Source: a virus. Taken from it: 64,000 bases of DNA. Shown here piece by piece: positions 33,651 through 60,593 of this stretch. Position 1 is the first letter of the stretch, and each line of letters opens with the position of its first letter. Under the pieces are notes generated by a model, which was given only the letters and a program-made list of their open reading frames with translations, did not search any database and was not told the DNA's origin. The translations under genes were made by a program, and so were the position numbers. Location: the IMG/VR virus record IMGVR_UViG_3300033145_000849, positions 64,267 through 128,266 of that record, one strand, 5' to 3'.

Positions 33651-36600
33651 CTAGAACTTTCTTCTCTTAGGAGCTGAGGGTCTTCTGGGGCTCATTCCTA
33701 TCCGTTTTCTAGCATCATTTGATGCCTGTTGCATACTTCTAGACTTGGGTCTTGGAGCATCATGTCCAAATCCTGGCCAGTTCCATATCTTAACCCCAGC
33801 CTCTTTGTTTGTATGAGCTGCAGGCAGATCTGGCTTCGAAATAGTGTTTACATTAGCAAAATCAGCCCTTCCAGATTGAGGCTTATGAGATTCTGCTGAT
33901 ATATGCTTTCCAGTGTCACCATCTATCAATCCTATACCTGGTGAATAGGCAATAGTATTATCATACTTAGGTTTGCCAAATGGTGTCTTTTCTAAAGTGA
34001 AAGCCACTAATGCTAAGTTAACAGCATCTAGAACATGGTCTCCTACTCTTGTATTCTCTTGTTCATATACTGGCATTCCGGCCATTGTCATACGCTTAAC
34101 AATATATCCTAAAAGAGCAGAAGTAAACTTATCATCTGACTTGGGATACTTAATAGTACAGGTTTCGAACCTTCTTACAGAGTTTTCAACTAAGAAAGGT
34201 TTCGCCGGTTTCTTAACGAGCTCTTTCGTAAACAAATCGTGGGTTTCTATTGTTCCACCAAAGTCATAAGCTTTAACTATTCTGGAAAGCTTAGAGTCTG
34301 GATGAGACTTGCCTTTAGTTGCTATGGAGTCAAATCCAAACTTTCTTAAGACTTCATATTGTGTAGCTCCAAAACCTCTATCTATGTAGATTGTGAAAGG
34401 ATTCCAGAGTCGGTTATACTCTGCAACTTTTTCACAAGCAGCCAATTGGGTATAGTCACCCCTACTAACAATCTGTTTATCTACAAGATAGAAAAGACCA
34501 TTTGCTGGATCGTAACCTACTACAACAATAGTTACGCCTACCTTTCTATCGTTCCAATCTACACCCATACTATAGTGCCAATTTGGATTAACGGTTTGTT
34601 CACTATACTTGTACTCTGATTGTGCAATCTCAACATACTTAGCTTGATAAACGCCTTCTTCTTGCTCACCAAACTGAGCTAGAACCTCATGTTTATAACC
34701 ATCTTCTGTAAGCTGTTCATGGAAAAAGTCTTCAAGCTCATCACTCCAGTTTGGATTGATTTGTGAAGGATAATGAAACTCCTTGAATATTCTAGAATTA
34801 CAAGTGGTATAGAAATGTTCTCTCTTACCAGTTGGAGTTGAAGACATCCAAACAGTAGCCTTAGGATGGTTTGTAATGATAGCAGACGCGGCATTTACAT
34901 CATCAGCACAAAGCATATCTGCCTCATCAAAGATCAACATACTAGCATCCTGACCTCTTACGGACCCAGCACCTTGTCCTGATCTAGTACCAGCAGTAAA
35001 ACCTCTAACCCTAGAACCATTAGCTAATTCCATAGCATAGTTAGGTGCCTTTACATTTCTAGTAACAGAAGCACTAAGCAAAGGATTGCCTTGAATCATA
35101 CCTTGAAGTCTAGAGAATATTAACTCGATTTGAGATTGGAATGGAGCTATCACAACTACTTTAAACTTAGAATGAGTAAACATACCATGTAGCATAGCTA
35201 TACATAATGCTTCGGTTTTTCCCGAGTTATGGGTTAGGATTCCATTGGCAATAAAATTATGATTATTTTTAACTTCAATATCATATGTTTCTTGTTCTCC
35301 AAGATATTCTATCTTTGAGACATAGTCCCATAAAATATCTTTTTCTGTCTTGCCATATTTATCTCCAGTGCTATCTGTTATTTTCATTGCAACAGAACAT
35401 GCCGTCTCTTTCCCTTTTACAGGTCCAATATTGTTAAGAAAATTTATTACCCCGTTTTTGTTAGAAACGACATATCTGTAACCACAATCTTCTTGTTTGA
35501 TATATCCATGAACACCAAATCTCCATAATAGACGTTGGATATCTTGAACTAATAGTTTATTTTCTTGGAGAACACCAATTTCGGTCCTATAGGTTTCTCT
35601 ACCTGTACGTTTAAATGAAGAGACATATCCATCTGCAGACCATAATCGATTCATAAAAGCAGCAATTTGTTCTTTGGGCGCTTCAAATATAGCTTTTGGA
35701 ACTCTCTTATCTGGACCACGAATATCTCCTAGTCCATGCTTAAATATAATTTCTCTTACAGGATTGGGTTGTCGGCGGCCATTAGAAATAATCAGATCAA
35801 AACCATTACCTTTTGGATAAGGTTTTACCTCGGAACCAAAAGATTTACATAAACTAGTAAATTCGTTTAAATATTCTTCAGTAATATTAGTAAACTTGGC
35901 CGATTGTTTAGGAGCACAGCTTCCATCAGCGATAAAATAGCCTAATAGTTCAGGTAATCCCAAGGGCAATGGTTTCGTACCAAAAACTGGTTCTACAATT
36001 GGAACTGCTATCTTATGTCCTACCTGTAGTCCAGAGCTAATAGTTGACCAATGACGAGGTAGTTTCTCTATGGTATATCCATTTTTATAATCACAGAAAC
36101 GGCTAATAGACAGGAATGGATGATTATTAGTACATTCAATTTCGTGTCCAAATTTTGTCCTAATTCTATAAACTGGCTTAGATCCACTGGACCAAGAATC
36201 AACAACAGTATCAGATTCTAATTTATAAGTACTTGTATTAACAGAGAAAAGACTGTCTCCAGCTCGAACTTCTTTGATTGATACCACTTTGCCACTAGTA
36301 AGTTGGACTAAAGTATTTTCAGTTAGGCACTGTCTACCCAATCTGAAGGCTTTACGCTTACTAGAACATCTTAACATTTGGGCTTGATAAGGTCTGTGGA
36401 AAGGAGCCTTTCCCATCTTTGCCACTTCTTCATCATATGGATTAGATTCTTCAGGTAAGGAACCATCGTCTGTCATTCGTTTCCAAACTGCACCTTCTGG
36501 ATCAAGACAGTGCCAGTCTAAAAATTCTGCTGCCCATGTAACTGGATCTAACATAGATATAGCGATCTCGGGATCGCCACCTACACTAGCTAAAATATCA

Positions 36601-36731
36601 TCTGAAAGATATGCTTCTGGGATACCAAAACAAGGAACTCTAAAGTTGTCTCCTCTTTTAAGATTGTGTTTCTTAACATAACCTTTTACACAGTCTTTAC
36701 AGATCCCATCACATTGCCTAAGGTCTATCAA
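33651..36731 (-). CDS. terL: Terminase large subunit (intein-containing)
   Basis: After splicing: Walker A GRQSGKT, Walker B LIFDEAD, SSTPTG, nuclease MGVDWN and DHVLDA. Confidence 0.93.
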   Translation of the reverse strand: MIDLRQCDGICKDCVKGYVKKHNLKRGDNFRVPCFGIPEAYLSDDILASVGGDPEIAISMLDPVTWAAEFLDWHCLDPEGAVWKRMTDDGSLPEESNPYDEEVAKMGKAPFHRPYQAQMLRCSSKRKAFRLGRQCLTENTLVQLTSGKVVSIKEVRAGDSLFSVNTSTYKLESDTVVDSWSSGSKPVYRIRTKFGHEIECTNNHPFLSISRFCDYKNGYTIEKLPRHWSTISSGLQVGHKIAVPIVEPVFGTKPLPLGLPELLGYFIADGSCAPKQSAKFTNITEEYLNEFTSLCKSFGSEVKPYPKGNGFDLIISNGRRQPNPVREIIFKHGLGDIRGPDKRVPKAIFEAPKEQIAAFMNRLWSADGYVSSFKRTGRETYRTEIGVLQENKLLVQDIQRLLWRFGVHGYIKQEDCGYRYVVSNKNGVINFLNNIGPVKGKETACSVAMKITDSTGDKYGKTEKDILWDYVSKIEYLGEQETYDIEVKNNHNFIANGILTHNSGKTEALCIAMLHGMFTHSKFKVVVIAPFQSQIELIFSRLQGMIQGNPLLSASVTRNVKAPNYAMELANGSRVRGFTAGTRSGQGAGSVRGQDASMLIFDEADMLCADDVNAASAIITNHPKATVWMSSTPTGKREHFYTTCNSRIFKEFHYPSQINPNWSDELEDFFHEQLTEDGYKHEVLAQFGEQEEGVYQAKYVEIAQSEYKYSEQTVNPNWHYSMGVDWNDRKVGVTIVVVGYDPANGLFYLVDKQIVSRGDYTQLAACEKVAEYNRLWNPFTIYIDRGFGATQYEVLRKFGFDSIATKGKSHPDSKLSRIVKAYDFGGTIETHDLFTKELVKKPAKPFLVENSVRRFETCTIKYPKSDDKFTSALLGYIVKRMTMAGMPVYEQENTRVGDHVLDAVNLALVAFTLEKTPFGKPKYDNTIAYSPGIGLIDGDTGKHISAESHKPQSGRADFANVNTISKPDLPAAHTNKEAGVKIWNWPGFGHDAPRPKSRSMQQASNDARKRIGMSPRRPSAPKRRKF
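35226..36329 (-). mobile_element. Intein with LAGLIDADG endonuclease in the TerL Walker A motif
   Basis: LGRQ|CLTENT...CTNNHPF...LGYFIADG...LWSADG...TYDIEV...ANGILTHN|SGKT; 368 aa. Confidence 0.95.
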
Positions 36732-40648: not shown

Positions 40649-42415
40649 CTACTCCTCTTTACCATCGATTAAATCATCTGGAGTTAAGGGTTGTACTACT
40701 TCTGCATCTATTATATCACTCTCTGCATGTCTCAGTTTCTTAAGTTCAACTTCTGCTTGTCTAGTAAGAAGCATTATCTTATTACGAAGTTCTGCTGCAG
40801 AGTTTGAAGGATCGTCATTACCTCTTTGTTTAAGCGCTGCTTCTCTTTTGTATTTTTCTTGTCTGTCCCCAACCATTAGCTTAACTAATTTGGTTTTTCT
40901 ATTGTTTAAGCGCTCTTTAGTGTCAAAAAAGGCGTTTGTTTCCATTTTTGTAAGAATAGTACCGTCTTTATCTACCCCAACTATGCTTTCTTGTACTAAT
41001 TCAGCATGTTTTGGTTTAGAAAGGTTGTTATTTAGTCTCCATAACATCAATTCTATCTCAGCTAGCTCTCGTACCATTTGTATTTCAGTGAATGAACTCT
41101 CATCTATATGATAGTCGTGAATATACAATCGGGTATATTCGTTCAATAAGTTTACTTCTATAAGACAATTATGAGTAACAATTCCATTGGCCAAATAGGT
41201 ATGATGATTATCAACCTCAAGACTATAGACTATGCCATCATAATCATATCGTTCAATTTCGATAGGTTCCTTATTTGGAACTTTTTCGCCATGTTTCCTT
41301 CTCTTCATCTCGGGACCATCAATAGTAGCAACATCCATACAACCGGAGATAAGATTACAAGCCCTTATCTTTAATAATCTGCTCATAGATCCTAGCATGG
41401 AGTTAAAATCAGACTTTCTGCTCCAAATTGGATAATCAATAGATAACCCGATCTCTTTAAGTTTCTGTGTAATAAATTGACTACCAGGAGAATTTCTCCT
41501 ATGATGTTCGTCTAATTGTTCCTGGGTAACCCACTTATACAAACCGTTCCATTTAACCTTCTTTGTCCCATCTGAAACAGCAATAAAACATGTTTTGGTA
41601 GTTCTAAATCTCAGAGAAAGCTCTTCTTCTGCTAACATCGCCTCTGTATTTGTATTGTAAAGACCCAATATCCAAATATCGTCAGCTTGCTCTCTTTGAG
41701 CTCTTGAAGTTATTCCAGAATACCTTTTGCTTTTGGTTTCTTTAAACAATACTGTTTTTCCTATCCTCCAGCTGTCTCCTCTTCTCATTAAATATACAGC
41801 AAATTTATTAAAAGCATTTTTGTTCCACCTTGCCATGCAAATGTGATCAACAGTACAATCATAGTGTCCATAGAGAGTCTTAATCCGGACCATTTGACCC
41901 TTATAGTCTCTACTTCCCAATTGAAAATGTGCCCCACCTCGAGAAGAATGTTCATAGCTAGAAATATAACTACTTTTACTATGAAATACAGCCACTTTGT
42001 CTTCTCCAACTTTTAGTTCTTCAATAGGAACCTGGCCTTGATTAACTGTCTGGATGAGGGTTCCTGGGGGATGACAAGCTCTACCTATTGGAGTTTTCTT
42101 CATTTTTACAAATAGACATTGAGGAGCGAAAGGACATTTTGCTCCTCCACCACAAGTTAAGGGTATCGCCGCACTTGCTCCTGTCGATAGATGAGTCAGA
42201 TGACTCTTGATTTTGTTGGCTTCTTCACGAGTAAACTCAATATCTGAATAATCATCCGGAATCAATTCCAAGAACTCGAAGAAATTGGTCTTATATTCTT
42301 TACCATCATTCTTGATAATGGTTCCATTCAACTTAATGAGATCTGTACTTTCCTTTTTAGGTTCAGCCAAAACAAAACTCCTGTTGTCCTGGAATATAGT
42401 GCGGCGCTTGCTCAA
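40649..42415 (-). CDS. Cys4 protein with intein (possible terminase small subunit)
   Basis: Spliced product has C..CPF..C...GRAC Zn-type motif and a helical C-terminus. The TerS call is positional inference only. Confidence 0.5.
   Translation of the reverse strand: MSKRRTIFQDNRSFVLAEPKKESTDLIKLNGTIIKNDGKEYKTNFFEFLELIPDDYSDIEFTREEANKIKSHLTHLSTGASAAIPLTCGGGAKCPFAPQCLFVKMKKTPIGRACHPPGTLIQTVNQGQVPIEELKVGEDKVAVFHSKSSYISSYEHSSRGGAHFQLGSRDYKGQMVRIKTLYGHYDCTVDHICMARWNKNAFNKFAVYLMRRGDSWRIGKTVLFKETKSKRYSGITSRAQREQADDIWILGLYNTNTEAMLAEEELSLRFRTTKTCFIAVSDGTKKVKWNGLYKWVTQEQLDEHHRRNSPGSQFITQKLKEIGLSIDYPIWSRKSDFNSMLGSMSRLLKIRACNLISGCMDVATIDGPEMKRRKHGEKVPNKEPIEIERYDYDGIVYSLEVDNHHTYLANGIVTHNCLIEVNLLNEYTRLYIHDYHIDESSFTEIQMVRELAEIELMLWRLNNNLSKPKHAELVQESIVGVDKDGTILTKMETNAFFDTKERLNNRKTKLVKLMVGDRQEKYKREAALKQRGNDDPSNSAAELRNKIMLLTRQAEVELKKLRHAESDIIDAEVVQPLTPDDLIDGKEE
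41168..42076 (-). mobile_element. Intein with GIY-YIG-like insert
   Basis: IGRA|CHPPGT...CTVDH...VYSLEV...ANGIVTHN|CLIE; 303 aa; insert AVYLMRRGDSWRIGKT...R...EAMLAEE. Confidence 0.85.
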
Positions 42416-42614
42416 GGTAAAACATTCTCTCTATAAAAGCTGCTGTACCAGAATGCATAATAACATGTTGAGACTGAGCTTGTTCTCCTACAATTTGGGC
42501 AAATATTCCAAACAATTCTTCCATTGCTCTACTTTCCGGCCGTAGATCTTCCTCTGTTACTCTAATAGATGCAGAATAAGAGTCCCCAACCTCAATAATG
42601 TCGTCATCTCCCAT
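42363..42614 (-). CDS. Hypothetical protein
   Basis: 83-aa ORF with overlapping neighbours and GGGG RBS-like sequence. Confidence 0.45.
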   Translation of the reverse strand: MGDDDIIEVGDSYSASIRVTEEDLRPESRAMEELFGIFAQIVGEQAQSQHVIMHSGTAAFIERMFYLEQAPHYIPGQQEFCFG

Positions 42615-47066: not shown

Positions 47067-47921
47067 ATGATAGGTAATTATGCAGACATGACGGTTGTGA
47101 TGGATGATATGGACGCCGATTTGATGATGGCATGTCCAGGTATACTAAACGATAAAATGCTGGCAGAGGTCCTGTGGGAGCTTCTGATGGGGCATGGACC
47201 ACAGGTTGTGGAAGAGGAAGAGTATAAGGACTGTATGCCGGTAGTTAAGTATGGTTTGGTAGAGAAGCGAGACTGGGAAGTAGAGAAGCGAATTTCTATC
47301 TTTGTTGAAGGCTTACATGGGATGCCTGAAAGGAAGTATATGTGGGTAGATGGGGCATGTGTGTCACAGCCGTATTTCACACGGAGTGGGGATAGGCCGG
47401 TTTGTCTACCAGAAGCAGAGACTAATGACCTTAAGCGTAGTGTAGGTGGGTGGAGTGATATATGGGCGTCTTCTATCGTTAGTGAACGTGAGCCTGGATT
47501 CACAGATGAACAGGTTAAAGAGATCTATGGCAACTATAGGGTGGTAGTTGATTGGGTCGCAAAACATAAAGATGACAAGCAGTTACTTAGACGTGGATGG
47601 GGAGCTTTCTGGAAGCGTATCTATAAGGAGAAGGCTGCAGGTACTAAGCATCTGTATATGTGGCAGAAGCATATCAATGCAGTTAAAGAGTGCTTTGGTC
47701 AGTATGGTATAGCTGCTAGGAAGAAAGTAGCACGCGCCAACCCGAGCTCTTGTGCTTCGCTCCCTTCGGTCGCTCAAAGTAAAGCCAACCCGAGCTCTTG
47801 TGCTTCGCTCCCTTCGGTCGCTCAAAGTAAAGCCAACCCGAGCTCTTGTGGCTCGGTTTCCCCTCGAAGCAACAGCGCCAACCCGAACGTCGGAGCCTCG
47901 CTCCCTTCGGTCGCTCGTTGA
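47067..47921 (+). CDS. Hypothetical protein, paralog of 52645-53337; C-terminus runs into the tandem repeat
   Basis: AGGAGG RBS before MIGNY; shared SxPYFTxxGxRPV motif. Confidence 0.6.
   Translation: MIGNYADMTVVMDDMDADLMMACPGILNDKMLAEVLWELLMGHGPQVVEEEEYKDCMPVVKYGLVEKRDWEVEKRISIFVEGLHGMPERKYMWVDGACVSQPYFTRSGDRPVCLPEAETNDLKRSVGGWSDIWASSIVSEREPGFTDEQVKEIYGNYRVVVDWVAKHKDDKQLLRRGWGAFWKRIYKEKAAGTKHLYMWQKHINAVKECFGQYGIAARKKVARANPSSCASLPSVAQSKANPSSCASLPSVAQSKANPSSCGSVSPRSNSANPNVGASLPSVAR
47736..47917. repeat. 48-bp tandem repeat (2 exact and 2 degenerate units)
   Basis: gccaacccgagctcttgtgcttcgctcccttcggtcgctcaaagtaaa at 47736 and 47784; partial units at 47832 and 47877. Confidence 0.95.
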
Positions 47922-48183
47922 GGAAGCAATTCTCTTGCCATATCGTTCACTTCGTTCACTTAATGTCATTCGAATTGCAATTAACAGCAATACTCATGCC
48001 AGCATAGCTGGCATTTGTATTGCAGAATCATTGTTCTTCCATACATACCTGGTATGACAAGTTTGACAGAGAGAGATGGGAGAGGGTAGTCATTTGATTA
48101 GCTGCTTTGCAGCCTTGCCTCTTCTTCTAGTGTAATTATTGTTTTATAGTTTAGGGTATTTACCCTAAGGGAGGAAATGAAAG

Positions 48184-48390
48184 ATGCCGAAAGATATGAA
48201 AGAAGGATTCAACGATCCTGATGGTTGGGGTATGAAGACAGAATACAATGCTGGAAGCAAAGAACTTACTTTCTTTGTAATTGATTCTAGTGGTGATGAT
48301 TCAGGTTGTGTATCTCTCAATCTTGACCAAGTAAATGCACTCAAACATTTCCTTATGAAAATAGAAGAAATGTATAAAGAGGAGGAGTAG
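48184..48390 (+). CDS. Hypothetical early protein
   Basis: GGAGG RBS; packed operon. Confidence 0.6.
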   Translation: MPKDMKEGFNDPDGWGMKTEYNAGSKELTFFVIDSSGDDSGCVSLNLDQVNALKHFLMKIEEMYKEEE

Positions 48391-54276: not shown

Positions 54277-54351
54277 GGCGCATTAGCCCAATTGGCACGA
54301 GGCGTCTGGTTTAGGGCCAGAATGTTCTAGGTTCAAATCCTAGATGCGCTA
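54277..54351 (+). tRNA. tRNA-Leu(UAG), short variable loop, no encoded CCA
   Basis: Acceptor ggcgcat/atgcgct; anticodon arm tctgg-ttTAGgg-ccaga; T arm ctagg-ttcaaat-cctag; A73. Confidence 0.8.
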
Positions 54352-54364
54352 CTAGGAGAACAAC

Positions 54365-54556
54365 ATGATTGCTTTAGGTCTTACATCACTAATCATTCTA
54401 CTGATTTGTGAAGTTGCAATGATTATCAGTATAGTTGTTGGTTGTAATGAATTAGATACTCCACTCAGAAGCGGGGTCTTCCTCTTTTGGTGTATCTTAA
54501 CTGCATTAATTAACATTCCAACTGTCTATATATACATGGTATTGTCTAATTTGTAG
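54365..54556 (+). CDS. Small two-TM membrane protein between tRNAs
   Basis: AGGAG RBS; hydrophobic. Confidence 0.55.
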   Translation: MIALGLTSLIILLICEVAMIISIVVGCNELDTPLRSGVFLFWCILTALINIPTVYIYMVLSNL

Positions 54557-54559
54557 TAA

Positions 54560-54633
54560 GGTCCCATATTCCAACAGGCAGAGAAACAGCGTTTAAAACG
54601 CTGCCAGTGCTGGTTCGACTCCAGCTGGGACTA
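54560..54633 (+). tRNA. tRNA-Leu(UAA), short variable loop, no encoded CCA
   Basis: Acceptor ggtccca/tgggact; cagcg-ttTAAaa-cgctg; gctgg-ttcgact-ccagc; A73. Confidence 0.8.
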
Positions 54634-54636
54634 TAT

Positions 54637-54708
54637 GGGTCACGCTCAGGGTAAGCTCGTTGGGCTCCAAACCTGACTGGATGCGGGGTTCAATTCCTCG
54701 GTGGCCCG
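54637..54708 (+). tRNA. tRNA-Trp(CCA), atypical D arm
   Basis: Acceptor gggtcac/gtggccc; ttggg-ctCCAaa-cctga; cgggg-ttcaatt-cctcg; G73. Confidence 0.65.
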
Positions 54709-54723
54709 CAGAGGAAAAGAAAG

Positions 54724-54930
54724 ATGACAGTTGAACAGCTTCATAAAATAACTGGTCAGTTAATTAAAGAGGGACATGGATTAGCGCCAGTATTATTTGA
54801 TACTGAAGCTCAAACTTATCACTATCATATGGCAAGTATAGATGAAGTATTCTTTGAAGAAGAACCATATCCACATTGTGGACTTCATGAAAATATTCCA
54901 CATCATACTTGTACTAAAAAGTGTGAATAA
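54724..54930 (+). CDS. Hypothetical protein
   Basis: MTVEQL..L start typical of small phage proteins. Confidence 0.55.
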   Translation: MTVEQLHKITGQLIKEGHGLAPVLFDTEAQTYHYHMASIDEVFFEEEPYPHCGLHENIPHHTCTKKCE

Positions 54931-54944
54931 GTATTCGGTTTATT

Positions 54945-55016
54945 GCTGGTGTAGCTCAGTTGGTAGAGCAGTTGATTTGTAATCAGCAGTTACGGGTTCA
55001 AGTCCTGTTACCAGCT
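54945..55016 (+). tRNA. tRNA-Thr(UGU)
   Basis: gctggtg-tagctcagttggtagagc-a-gttga-ttTGTaa-tcagc...ggttcaagtcc...taccagc. Confidence 0.9.
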
Positions 55017-55030
55017 CAAGGGAGAAATAG

Positions 55031-58384: not shown

Positions 58385-58669
58385 ATGTCAGAACTAAAAT
58401 TAGGTGATATAACTAGGCTTAACCAAACAGGCAGAAATATTATAACTAATGAAAACAATAGTTATCCACAAAGTTGGGTAACTAAACTTTTTGTTATTGC
58501 AAAAGAAATACCTAGTCGTACTGAAACAAAAACATATCTTGTAAAAGATATAACAGGACAAGAAATCTGGAATTCTGTAGATAACACATCTCTTGAGATA
58601 TCAGAAGAATATATGAAAAAGATAGAAGTATGTCCTATGAAACAACAAGAATTTGATTTCAATGGTTAA
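58385..58669 (+). CDS. SH3/KOW-like array protein 1, ends QQEFDFNG
   Basis: LKLGDITRLN start; C-terminal clamp-like motif. Confidence 0.75.
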   Translation: MSELKLGDITRLNQTGRNIITNENNSYPQSWVTKLFVIAKEIPSRTETKTYLVKDITGQEIWNSVDNTSLEISEEYMKKIEVCPMKQQEFDFNG

Positions 58670-58946
58670 ATTACAACCAGGTGATATTGTTAGGTTCAAT
58701 GAAGATGGCAGAAAAATAGTAATGGCTAATGGCATGCCAACTTCTTGGGCTACAATGACATTTATAATTAAAGTAAAAGACATGAGGCGAACGTGGACAG
58801 AGTACTGGTATCTAGTAGATTTAAAAAGACAAAATGTAACAGATGGTAAATTTCCAGGTGGTCTTAGGGCACAGGGTGACCTTTTGGAAAGAGTATCTGG
58901 ATCTGTAGATGCTCCTATACAGCAAGAGTTAAATTTTGACGTATGA
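58662..58946 (+). CDS. SH3/KOW-like array protein 2, ends QQELNFDV
   Basis: LQPGDIVRFN; 8-nt overlap. Confidence 0.75.
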   Translation: MVKLQPGDIVRFNEDGRKIVMANGMPTSWATMTFIIKVKDMRRTWTEYWYLVDLKRQNVTDGKFPGGLRAQGDLLERVSGSVDAPIQQELNFDV

Positions 58947-59211
58947 CTACAAAATAGGGGACAGAGTTAGACTTTCACCTAGAGGGGTTCGTTTAATGAG
59001 GAGTTCAACTCAAAAGAATCCTGATTATTGGAGTACTATAGAGTATCTTATTCATGATCAAGAAAGTTCATATGTGTATATCCTTTCAGATTTACAAGGT
59101 TATGTAGCTCCAAGTCCTTTTGATAATAGAGATTTTAATTGTCATATAGATTACCTGGAACTGATAGATGTAAGAATTCATGGTCAACAAGAGTTAAAAC
59201 TAGATGGCTGA
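58936..59211 (+). CDS. SH3/KOW-like array protein 3, ends QQELKLDG
   Basis: YKIGDRVRL; TTG start. Confidence 0.75.
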   Translation: MTYDYKIGDRVRLSPRGVRLMRSSTQKNPDYWSTIEYLIHDQESSYVYILSDLQGYVAPSPFDNRDFNCHIDYLELIDVRIHGQQELKLDG

Positions 59212-59509
59212 ACATAAGTTTAAAATAGGAGACACGGTAGAATTCAATAAAGAATTCAAGCAACGTGTACAAAGCTGGATAGATGAACAATCAGTAGAAT
59301 TACCCAGTGATAGAAAAAGATATTGTAACATAATGTTAAATGAAACATTTAAAATATATGAATGTGGATCAAATAGTAAAGAATATCTTATGACTCAAAT
59401 AGATAAAAAGCTATTTATAGATGCATATAATAATAGATGGGTAGGAGAAAAGTATCTACAAAGAGTAGCTCCAGTTTATGGACAGCAAGAGTTAAAACTA
59501 GATGTTTAA
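59204..59509 (+). CDS. SH3/KOW-like array protein 4, ends QQELKLDV
   Basis: FKIGDTVEFN; 8-nt overlap. Confidence 0.78.
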   Translation: MAEHKFKIGDTVEFNKEFKQRVQSWIDEQSVELPSDRKRYCNIMLNETFKIYECGSNSKEYLMTQIDKKLFIDAYNNRWVGEKYLQRVAPVYGQQELKLDV

Positions 59510-59765
59510 GATAAACGATAGAGTAAAATTTACAGAGTATTTCAAGGAGCATATATTATATCAAACTACTCTACCAGAAGAATGTAAAAATGAAATATTT
59601 AGAATCATAGAGGTAAATAACAGTTTAGATTATATACGATACCGATTAATTAGACCAAATGAAAGAAATCTCATAAATTCCCATGGTGTTAGTTGGTGTA
59701 CAGAAGATGCCTTTCAACTAGTGACTAATATGTTAAGACAACAAGAAATGAATCTAGATGTTTAA
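59502..59765 (+). CDS. SH3/KOW-like array protein 5, ends QQEMNLDV
   Basis: FKINDRVKFT; 8-nt overlap. Confidence 0.78.
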   Translation: MFKINDRVKFTEYFKEHILYQTTLPEECKNEIFRIIEVNNSLDYIRYRLIRPNERNLINSHGVSWCTEDAFQLVTNMLRQQEMNLDV

Positions 59766-60021
59766 GATTGGAGACATAGTAGAATTTACACAATCATTTC
59801 AAGACGAAGTAGAAGATCCAAATGTACGAGTAATGGCTAAAACTGAGACATTTAAAATAATAGGAGTAGATATTCATTTACATGAAGCACGTTATAAACT
59901 AAAGAGACCTAATGGAAAAATGCTCATAGATCGATGCAGTAATTATTTATGCTTCGAATCAGATTTACAACAAGTTAATGGTTTTATTAAACAAACAGAA
60001 ATACACTTTTCAACTAGATAA
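59758..60021 (+). CDS. SH3/KOW-like array protein 6, ends QTEIHFSTR
   Basis: FKIGDIVEFT; 8-nt overlap. Confidence 0.78.
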   Translation: MFKIGDIVEFTQSFQDEVEDPNVRVMAKTETFKIIGVDIHLHEARYKLKRPNGKMLIDRCSNYLCFESDLQQVNGFIKQTEIHFSTR

Positions 60022-60104: not shown

Positions 60105-60593
60105 ATGTCAGCTAATAAAGTAATCTTGGTAGGAAGAATTGGTAACGACATCGACTTGCGATACACCCAGGGTGGTCAGGCAGTCACGGACCTCAGTATT
60201 GCTACCAGCAGAGGCTGGACAGACAAGAATGGTCAACGACAGTCGAAAACTACTTGGACTCGAGTAGTTGTCTGGAACAAACAAGCTGAGAATTGTAAAC
60301 GATATCTCAGTAAAGGCCGTCAAGTTTATATTGAAGGTCATTTGGAGAATCGTAAGTGGGAAGATACCCGCGACCACATCACTCGCTATGCTACGGATGT
60401 TATTGCAGAAGTAGTTCAATTCTTGGGTGATAAGCCTGTCGGCGAGAACTCACAGAACAGTTCTTCTAACGAAGGACAGGGACGAGAGAATACTCCGCAA
60501 GAATCGAATGAGGCAGGAGCTGCTGAACAAGCTGCAGCAGAACAAGAAGAAGTCGAGCAACAACTTGCCCTTAACATTGATATTCCTTGTTAA
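60105..60593 (+). CDS. ssb: Single-stranded DNA-binding protein
   Basis: NKVILVGRIGND..LRYT..G.AV..LSIAT...W.RVVVW.KQAE...YLSKGRQVYIEG.L..RKW. Confidence 0.95.
   Translation: MSANKVILVGRIGNDIDLRYTQGGQAVTDLSIATSRGWTDKNGQRQSKTTWTRVVVWNKQAENCKRYLSKGRQVYIEGHLENRKWEDTRDHITRYATDVIAEVVQFLGDKPVGENSQNSSSNEGQGRENTPQESNEAGAAEQAAAEQEEVEQQLALNIDIPC

Follow-up and report, generated by a model that had tools for sequence, protein, structure and literature searches.

The bacterial sliding clamp is a hub protein and a drug target. In the available text of bioRxiv 10.64898/2026.05.27.728225, the peptides that bind it are described as a pentapeptide, Q-phi-x-L-F, and a hexapeptide, Q-phi-x-L-x-L, the latter exemplified by QVELEF at the C terminus of Pol III alpha, QLVLGL of Pol IV, and QLSLPL of Hda; most weight lies on the first position and the two final ones, given as positions 1, 4, and 5, and an aliphatic residue is preferred at position 2. 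Here we describe an array of six tandem viral genes (g1 to g6, positions 58385-60021, + strand) whose products are predicted to be small barrels that each end in a hexapeptide resembling these motifs. The array lies in a 64,000-nucleotide stretch of DNA (the window; positions 64,267 to 128,266 of IMG/VR virus record IMGVR_UViG_3300033145_000849). The record is linear, has a length of 128,266 bp, and is ∼54% complete; the window forms its second half.

Clamp motifs and single clamp-targeting phage proteins are already known. The use of the peptide pocket of the clamp by phage proteins has been shown only recently, as for MuC. According to the available text of PMC12867686, the phage Mu proteins MuC and Mor bind the host clamp via near-consensus motifs at their termini in which position 2 is H or P. 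An aliphatic residue at position 2 is therefore a preference and not a strict requirement. MuC and Mor resemble the array proteins in being phage proteins with terminal motifs of the clamp type and a non-consensus position 2, but they are DNA-binding activators that use a pentapeptide and are encoded by single genes, whereas the array encodes barrels with a hexapeptide in six genes; homology between the two was not detected. The phage Twort protein Gp168 is a beta-clamp inhibitor that, by the title of its report (PMC8565349), occupies the DNA sliding channel. Like the array proteins, Gp168 is a small phage protein that would share the sliding clamp as its target; unlike them, it is the product of a single gene and is aimed at the channel rather than at the peptide pocket, and we set the two apart by description only. 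In phage T4, the unrelated proteins gp43, gp33, and gp55 share a C-terminal tail that docks on gp45. The T4 clamp also serves late transcription (available text of PMC12867686). The T4-type clients resemble the array and g7 (a further carrier of the tail, described below) in that one C-terminal tail is common to several unrelated phage proteins; T4, however, encodes its own clamp and loader and uses another tail pattern, whereas no gp45-family, PCNA, or DnaN clamp was detected in the relatives of the virus described here. A tandem family of minimal barrels bearing a clamp motif was not found in the literature, supplements and subscription journals being outside the coverage of that search.

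The six array genes are co-oriented, and their successive stop and start codons overlap. The first, g1 (58385-58669), encodes a 94-residue SH3-like barrel paralogue from an ATG (101 residues if translation begins at TTG 58364) and ends in QQEFDF (58643-58660) followed by NG and a stop codon. The ATG of g2 (58662-58946; 94 residues, or 97 from TTG 58653) sits within the final codons of g1, and the g2 tail is QQELNF (58920-58937), followed by DV and stop. The next two genes share the tail QQELKL: g3 (58936-59211; 91 residues from a TTG start) carries it at 59185-59202 before DG and stop, and g4 (59204-59509; 101 residues) at 59483-59500 before DV and stop. The tail of g5 (59502-59765; 87 residues) is QQEMNL (59739-59756), again followed by DV and stop. 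The last gene, g6 (59758-60021; 87 residues), ends in QTEIHF (59992-60009) followed by STR and stop, and no gene overlaps its end. A previous reading of the same DNA from its letters alone (the sequence-only reading) had reported six paralogues of 87-101 residues in these places, with an N-terminal (F/L/Y)(K/Q)x(G/N)D motif and with tails beginning at exactly these nucleotides; the list of open reading frames (ORFs) and the sequence bear this out, the N-terminal motifs being, from g1 to g6, LKLGD, LQPGD, YKIGD, FKIGD, FKIND, and FKIGD. Gene calls from the same contig in the public protein collection have lengths of 94, 87, 94, 91, 87, and 101 residues. Between paralogues, the bodies are 16-37% identical, and the only invariant columns of the six-way alignment are M1, D8, I38, the tail Gln, and the tail Glu.

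To compare the tail with its chance occurrence, 393 six-frame ORFs of at least 50 residues, taken from the record over its full 128,266 bp, were scanned. Seven matches to the strict pattern Q[QT]E[LMIF]x[LF] were obtained, all of them within the last 6-9 residues of an ORF, and their carriers are the six array genes and one 83-residue ORF, g7, that has an unrelated body. For a loose pattern, Qxx[LMIF]x[LF], the frequency is 1.0e-3 per residue, corresponding to ∼0.007 expected matches per C-terminal window; the six array tails are paralogous and hence do not count as six independent events. In all seven tails, Gln is at position 1, Leu, Met, Ile, or Phe at position 4, and Leu or Phe at position 6, and the motif ends 1-3 residues from the C terminus. 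The Phe or Ile found at position 4 in g1, g6, and g7 is less typical of clamp motifs than Leu or Met.

The additional carrier of the tail, g7 (42363-42614, - strand), was found by the motif scan in the late gene block and encodes an acidic protein of 83 residues (pI 4.3) that ends PGQQEFCFG. An array profile from which the tail had been removed does not match g7, indicating that the same peptide stands on an unrelated body. The gene is called in the public protein collection, where no homologue was found, and none of 20 relatives identified by their capsid protein has a match; a single-sequence structure model of g7 was too poor for use (mean predicted local distance difference test score (pLDDT) of 60.7). 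It is located between another gene of 83 codons and a gene for a 588-residue protein, just upstream of the latter. This 588-residue protein (40649-42415, - strand) carries an intein splicing domain.

The array tails share with the motifs of Pol III alpha, Pol IV, and Hda a terminal, exposed position, Gln at position 1, a Leu/Met-type residue at position 4, and Leu or Phe at position 6. They differ from them in having Gln or Thr at position 2, in being attached to tiny barrels that lack an enzyme domain, and in occurring on six tandem paralogues. An acidic residue at position 3 and an Asp directly after the motif (four of the six array tails) are further likenesses to the C terminus of Pol III alpha, and by these residues the array tail appears closest in type to the C-terminal motif of the Escherichia coli enzyme. 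In the crystal structure of Pol III alpha with the clamp, the Asp that follows the motif bonds Arg246 of the clamp, and the pocket residues named are Val247, Leu177, Val360, Pro242, Met362, Gly174, Pro363, and Arg246 (available text of PMC3716654).

Modeling of a complex with DnaN, as the sequence-only reading had proposed, was run for g2 with the E. coli protein (DPO3B_ECOLI). The complex scored 0.68 (0.67, 0.68, and 0.69 in separate runs), compared with 0.26 for the best of three controls, and passed a mark that 58 of 80 solved complexes and 2 of 110 mismatched pairs also attain. At least 95% of contacts are common to the runs, and the pLDDT of the partner is at least 75. In the model, the part of g2 in contact with DnaN is confined to residues 84-92 and 94, which touch DnaN residues 172, 174-177, 242-243, 246-247, 275, 278, 280, 320, 344, 346, 360, and 362-366. 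These include L177, P242, V247, V360, M362, G174, R246, and P363, so that the tail is predicted to lie in the canonical pocket named in PMC3716654 and the modeled pose uses the same pocket residues as Pol III alpha. We read the result of this modeling as a measure of the likeness of the tail to a clamp motif and not as proof of binding.

The bodies to which these tails are attached are predicted to be five-stranded small barrels of the SH3/KOW/Tudor type. The AlphaFold2 model of g1, built on the six-sequence alignment, has a mean pLDDT of 81.1 and places a small barrel at residues 1-84; residues 85-92, in the tail, fall below a pLDDT of 50, as expected of an exposed flexible terminus. Foldseek matches of g1 in the PDB are weak (E 0.018-0.03, TM ∼0.5), and all of the top matches are SH3-like barrels (NusG KOW, YorP, PetP, NdhS, PsaE, eS4, and the nitrile hydratase beta subunit). 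The best VIA-align scores were obtained with PetP (7r0w_V; Z 6.7, root-mean-square deviation 2.8 Å, 64 residues aligned) and with KOW6-7 of DSIF (5ohq; Z 6.7, 2.6 Å, 58 residues aligned), a Z of 6.7 being a middling value of a kind that the tool calls common. The next matches were the Mind bomb REP domain (4tse), Tudor domains, and YorP of the Bacillus subtilis prophage SPbeta (2heq), and the structural neighbors of g4 in the Atlas are YorP, Chromo, SH3_15, and PetP-like clusters. PetP, DSIF KOW6-7, NdhS, Mind bomb REP, Tudor domains, and YorP thus have the same small five-stranded barrel as the array proteins, and none of them is known to bear a clamp tail. As a sequence family, the barrels have no such affiliation: at E ≤1, five of the six proteins match no Pfam family and g5 matches only DUF2661 (E 0.09, under the cut-off of that family), and a PHROG scan of the six proteins gave a best E of 0.025 and no usable family. 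The N-terminal K-I-G-D-x-V of the array resembles the KOW signature by eye only. The SH3/KOW-like assignment of the sequence-only reading therefore stands at the level of fold, in the model and in all three structural comparisons, and fails at the level of sequence profiles. The array proteins are not markedly basic (pI 4.9-8.0).

Searches for other members of the family returned the array itself. A word-indexed search of 5.8 billion proteins retrieved only the six array proteins (6 of 1789 candidates), and an exhaustive profile search of 1.84 billion representatives at E ≤0.001 gave 11 matches, the six proteins themselves and five repeat proteins; the WD40, CBM_5_12, and low-complexity repeat proteins among the profile matches were discarded as repeat-inflated. 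In 89 loci near relatives of the neighboring phosphoesterase and SSB, the array profile has no match and a QxE-type tail is present in three ORFs. The profile is likewise unmatched in all 20 capsid-relatives (60-78% capsid identity), of which only two have a match to the SSB. The other two of the five, the only nontrivial matches apart from the array itself, are P0011 (331 residues), which has three tandem K-I-G-D-x-V barrels, and P0009 (115 residues), which has two such starts; both lack the Q-x-E tail, and they may be fused, distant kin of the array barrel.

Immediately downstream of the array, after an 83-base gap, is ssb (60105-60593, + strand; 162 residues; Pfam SSB E 4.9e-34, PHROG 44 E 2e-44), as the sequence-only reading had stated. 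The tail of an SSB usually is an acidic tip ending in Phe. The C terminus of this SSB (60546-60593) reads QLALNI followed by DIPC, which, judged from its residues, would fit the hexapeptide clamp pattern, including the aliphatic residue at position 2.

The lineage of the virus provides a setting for such tails. Its capsid protein is 34-37% identical to those of jumbo myoviruses (0305phi8-36-like Bacillus, Acinetobacter ME3, and Moorella jumbo phages). All four capsid-relatives examined encode Pol III alpha (PF07733, E 5e-51 to 4e-94); two of these genomes are complete and have terminal repeats. A host-like Pol III alpha is the defining feature of a jumbo-phage group described in the available text of PMC7824862. 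No clamp was found with DnaN models (0 of 4 with PF00712, 0 of 5 with TIGR00663), with PCNA_N (0 of 5), or with the T4 gp45 family (0 of 5) in two complete and two partial relatives and the fragment that contains the window, a sample and method from which a very diverged clamp could escape. No family A polymerase was found in the examined relatives, and neither a polymerase nor a clamp gene was found in the ∼54%-complete fragment itself, the replication module of which is probably in the missing part of the genome. From a C-family polymerase without a phage clamp, we infer use of the host beta clamp. No host signal was obtained: the capsid protein has no match in genome contigs, and a DegT-like sugar gene matches many phyla at 29-43% identity. 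Among known phages, blastn against a phage collection returned only 62-base matches to ssb in four Vibrio phage records.

Tails resembling clamp motifs are also present in the relatives. A SRAP protein (Pfam E 2.2e-42; contig G011, 49220-49861, locus L136) ends in QMQLNF plus two residues, a DHH phosphoesterase (contig G013, 10877-11779, locus L145) in QNMLMF plus two residues, and a NADAR protein (G013, 65094-65576, L148) in QINLF. In another relative, a 142-residue orphan encoded 2.5 kb upstream of ssb (contig G016, 39156-39584; L163:1156-1584) ends in QLSLF, the exact consensus pentapeptide. These tails would be telling only through the identity of their carriers, which are DNA-metabolism proteins, and the cases are anecdotal.

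If the array tails bind the clamp, the most likely mechanism is the following. Each barrel would carry its clamp-type C-terminal hexapeptide on a short flexible linker, the tail Gln would enter subsite II and the two hydrophobic residues subsite I of the host DnaN, and six different barrel surfaces, together with the unrelated g7, would thereby be tethered to clamps loaded on DNA. This would take place in a phage lineage that has its own DnaE-type polymerase and, as far as detected, no clamp. The array proteins might act as adaptors that carry different cargo to the clamp or as competitors that displace its host clients. The strong divergence of the bodies fits adaptors and pocket-occupying decoys equally, and the variable recognition domain imagined in the sequence-only reading is an idea that only this divergence suggests. 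The genes, the motif, and its confinement to C termini are shown directly; the barrel with its disordered tail and the docking pose are shown as models; and actual binding, the identification of the partner with the host clamp, and the role of the proteins are inferred. A broader and more tentative proposal, which we think rather doubtful as a whole, is that the array belongs to the lineage's own set of clients for the host clamp, a polymerase-like handle having been copied onto six interchangeable barrels, onto g7, and perhaps onto SSB; the host beta clamp would then be a landing pad programmed by the phage, on which cargo is recruited to replicating phage DNA and/or from which host polymerases and Hda are evicted. 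If all six barrels do carry a clamp handle, phages would expand the client list of the clamp wholesale, and the array would be a natural source of six small ligands that hold the clamp by one shared anchor.

Several points weigh against clamp docking as the function of the tail. At position 2, six of the seven tails have Gln and one has Thr, so that the aliphatic preference of clamp motifs is not seen; a polar residue there predicts weaker clamp binding. In the available text of bioRxiv 10.64898/2026.05.27.728225, binding of a MutL hexapeptide with a charged second residue was not measurable, and the affinity of hexapeptides for the B. subtilis clamp is lower than that for the E. coli clamp by a factor of ten or more. 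The E. coli DnaN used in the complex model is a stand-in that may not match the clamp of the host, and because many clamp-peptide complexes have been solved, the docking result may reflect memory of those structures. The array family is unique to this contig, which bars a test of conservation across species. The context of a DnaE without a clamp comes not from this virus but from relatives whose capsid proteins are 60-67% identical to its own, and the number of clamp-like tails in the relatives is not above chance (for G011, three loose C-terminal matches in 263 genes, ∼1.3 expected). At the gene junctions, the DNA is dual-coded: the final two residues (N-G, D-V, D-G) are set by the next ATG or TTG and the stop codon, the QQE codons (CAA CAA GAG and the like) form a weak purine-rich AAGAG or AAGAA 6-10 nucleotides before the next start, and in g7 the same codons include a full AGGAG that precedes a possible TTG start of the following gene. 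Part of the conservation of the tail may thus be at the nucleotide level.

The clamp-like character that had been claimed for the tails holds at the three key positions, in the disordered C terminus, and in the modeled canonical pocket, and it does not extend to position 2, which is polar (Gln or Thr) and not aliphatic. Taking these points together, we consider the array tail to be very probably a functional docking peptide of some kind, and we regard the case that it is specifically a clamp-docking peptide as evenly balanced. Clamp docking remains the best explanation; behind it, four others were ranked, with docking on a different partner placed first, docking of tails on barrels second, constraint at the gene junctions third, and a degron or cleavage site last.

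The tail could be a real docking peptide whose shared partner is not DnaN, such as a phage protein whose gene lies in the half of the genome that is missing or another component of the host replisome. The portability of the tail, which is also carried by the unrelated g7, would suit any such partner, and so would the fact that only ∼54% of the genome is in hand; position 2 is atypical of clamp motifs, and the C-terminal tail of Pol III alpha, the one most like the array tails, reportedly also contacts the tau subunit. We nevertheless think a different partner unlikely, because the tail agrees with the clamp motif in its three key positions, in its place at the terminus, and in the Asp that comes next, because the modeled tail occupies the canonical pocket (0.68 versus 0.26 for the best control), and because no other hub came to light.

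Short peptides are common ligands of SH3-, Tudor-, and chromo-like barrels, which raises the alternative that each tail docks onto the SH3-like barrels of neighboring paralogues to form a hetero-oligomer or chain, its likeness to a clamp motif being coincidental. Translational coupling of the genes, by which similar amounts of the proteins would be made, is in keeping with such an assembly. However, the tail is not folded back on its own barrel in the monomer model, where it has a pLDDT below 50, and g7 bears the tail without the barrel. On this evidence, docking of tails on barrels is improbable.

It is also possible that the tail has no function as protein and is kept by constraints at the gene junctions (the purine run of a ribosome-binding site, an A/T-rich spacer, and the start/stop overlap) together with common descent. 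In five of the six genes, the tail codons overlap the following start, and the AAGAG or AAGAA runs, the full AGGAG of g7, and the terminal D-V, D-G, and N-G dictated by the ATG/TTG and stop overlaps are all what these constraints would produce. Codon comparison points the other way. The ordinary ribosome-binding sites of the region have GGAG 5-9 nucleotides upstream of the start, whereas the array junctions lack GGAG. Gln at position 1, which lies upstream of the purine run, is kept in all seven tails through changes between CAA and CAG, and Glu at position 3 is encoded by GAA or GAG. The hydrophobic positions 4 (TTT, TTA, ATG, or ATA) and 6 (TTC, TTT, or CTA) stay hydrophobic despite non-synonymous changes, while position 5 stays polar. 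The last gene, g6, is not coupled to a downstream gene, and its tail loses only Gln at position 2 and the trailing residues, keeping Gln at position 1, Glu at position 3, Ile at position 4, and Phe at position 6. These features persist although, outside the tail, the paralogues are only 16-37% identical. Because the junctions lack GGAG, Gln at position 1 is kept, positions 4 and 6 remain hydrophobic, and the uncoupled g6 is nevertheless conserved, we conclude that positions 1, 4, and 6, which define the motif, are under selection at the protein level, and that Gln at position 2 and Glu at position 3 may serve both protein and RNA. The sequence-only reading had named conservation at the nucleotide level alone as one hazard to its interpretation; for positions 1, 4, and 6 this does not apply, and a tail kept purely by junction constraints has, in our estimate, only a small chance of being the explanation.

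The weakest alternative, in which the tail sets how long early proteins last, either as a C-terminal degron or as a protease site following the conserved Glu, is very improbable, for although an invariant Glu followed by a hydrophobic residue in an exposed, disordered tail would suit it, the extreme C-terminal residues vary (NG, DV, DG, STR, and G) whereas known C-terminal degrons depend on the last residues, no protease is linked to the array, and the clamp pattern fits the motif better.

The array is part of a + strand block of small early-type genes and has a G+C content of 31%, compared with 36.5% in its flanks and 39.9% in the window. The gene upstream of the array encodes a 165-residue protein that has no homologue beyond itself in these searches. 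Promoter-like sites (17, with 16.3 expected) and terminator-like sites (3, with 1.6 expected) are not above chance, and neither is a hairpin between g6 and ssb (z -1.55). The same early block contains a cluster of four tRNA genes (54277-55017) for Leu(TAG), Leu(TAA), Trp(CCA), and Thr(TGT). Elsewhere in the window, the gene for the large terminase (Terminase_6N / DEAD-like; 33651-36731, - strand) is interrupted by an intein with a LAGLIDADG domain.

Two observations were made in other contigs. The relative that encodes the 142-residue orphan (G016, locus L163) has an ssb product 42% identical to that of the phage described here, and at 47356-48243 of the contig it contains a different tandem array, of four paralogues of 71-75 residues that start with MKIVHP, end with a conserved A-R-[LI]-x-[YF]-[DE], and are unrelated to g1-g6. 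An HNH endonuclease (HNH_3 E 4.9e-12; L007:3307-3831) encoded in a large phage contig that is not related ends in QLELQF plus two residues, a sequence that resembles the clamp motif.

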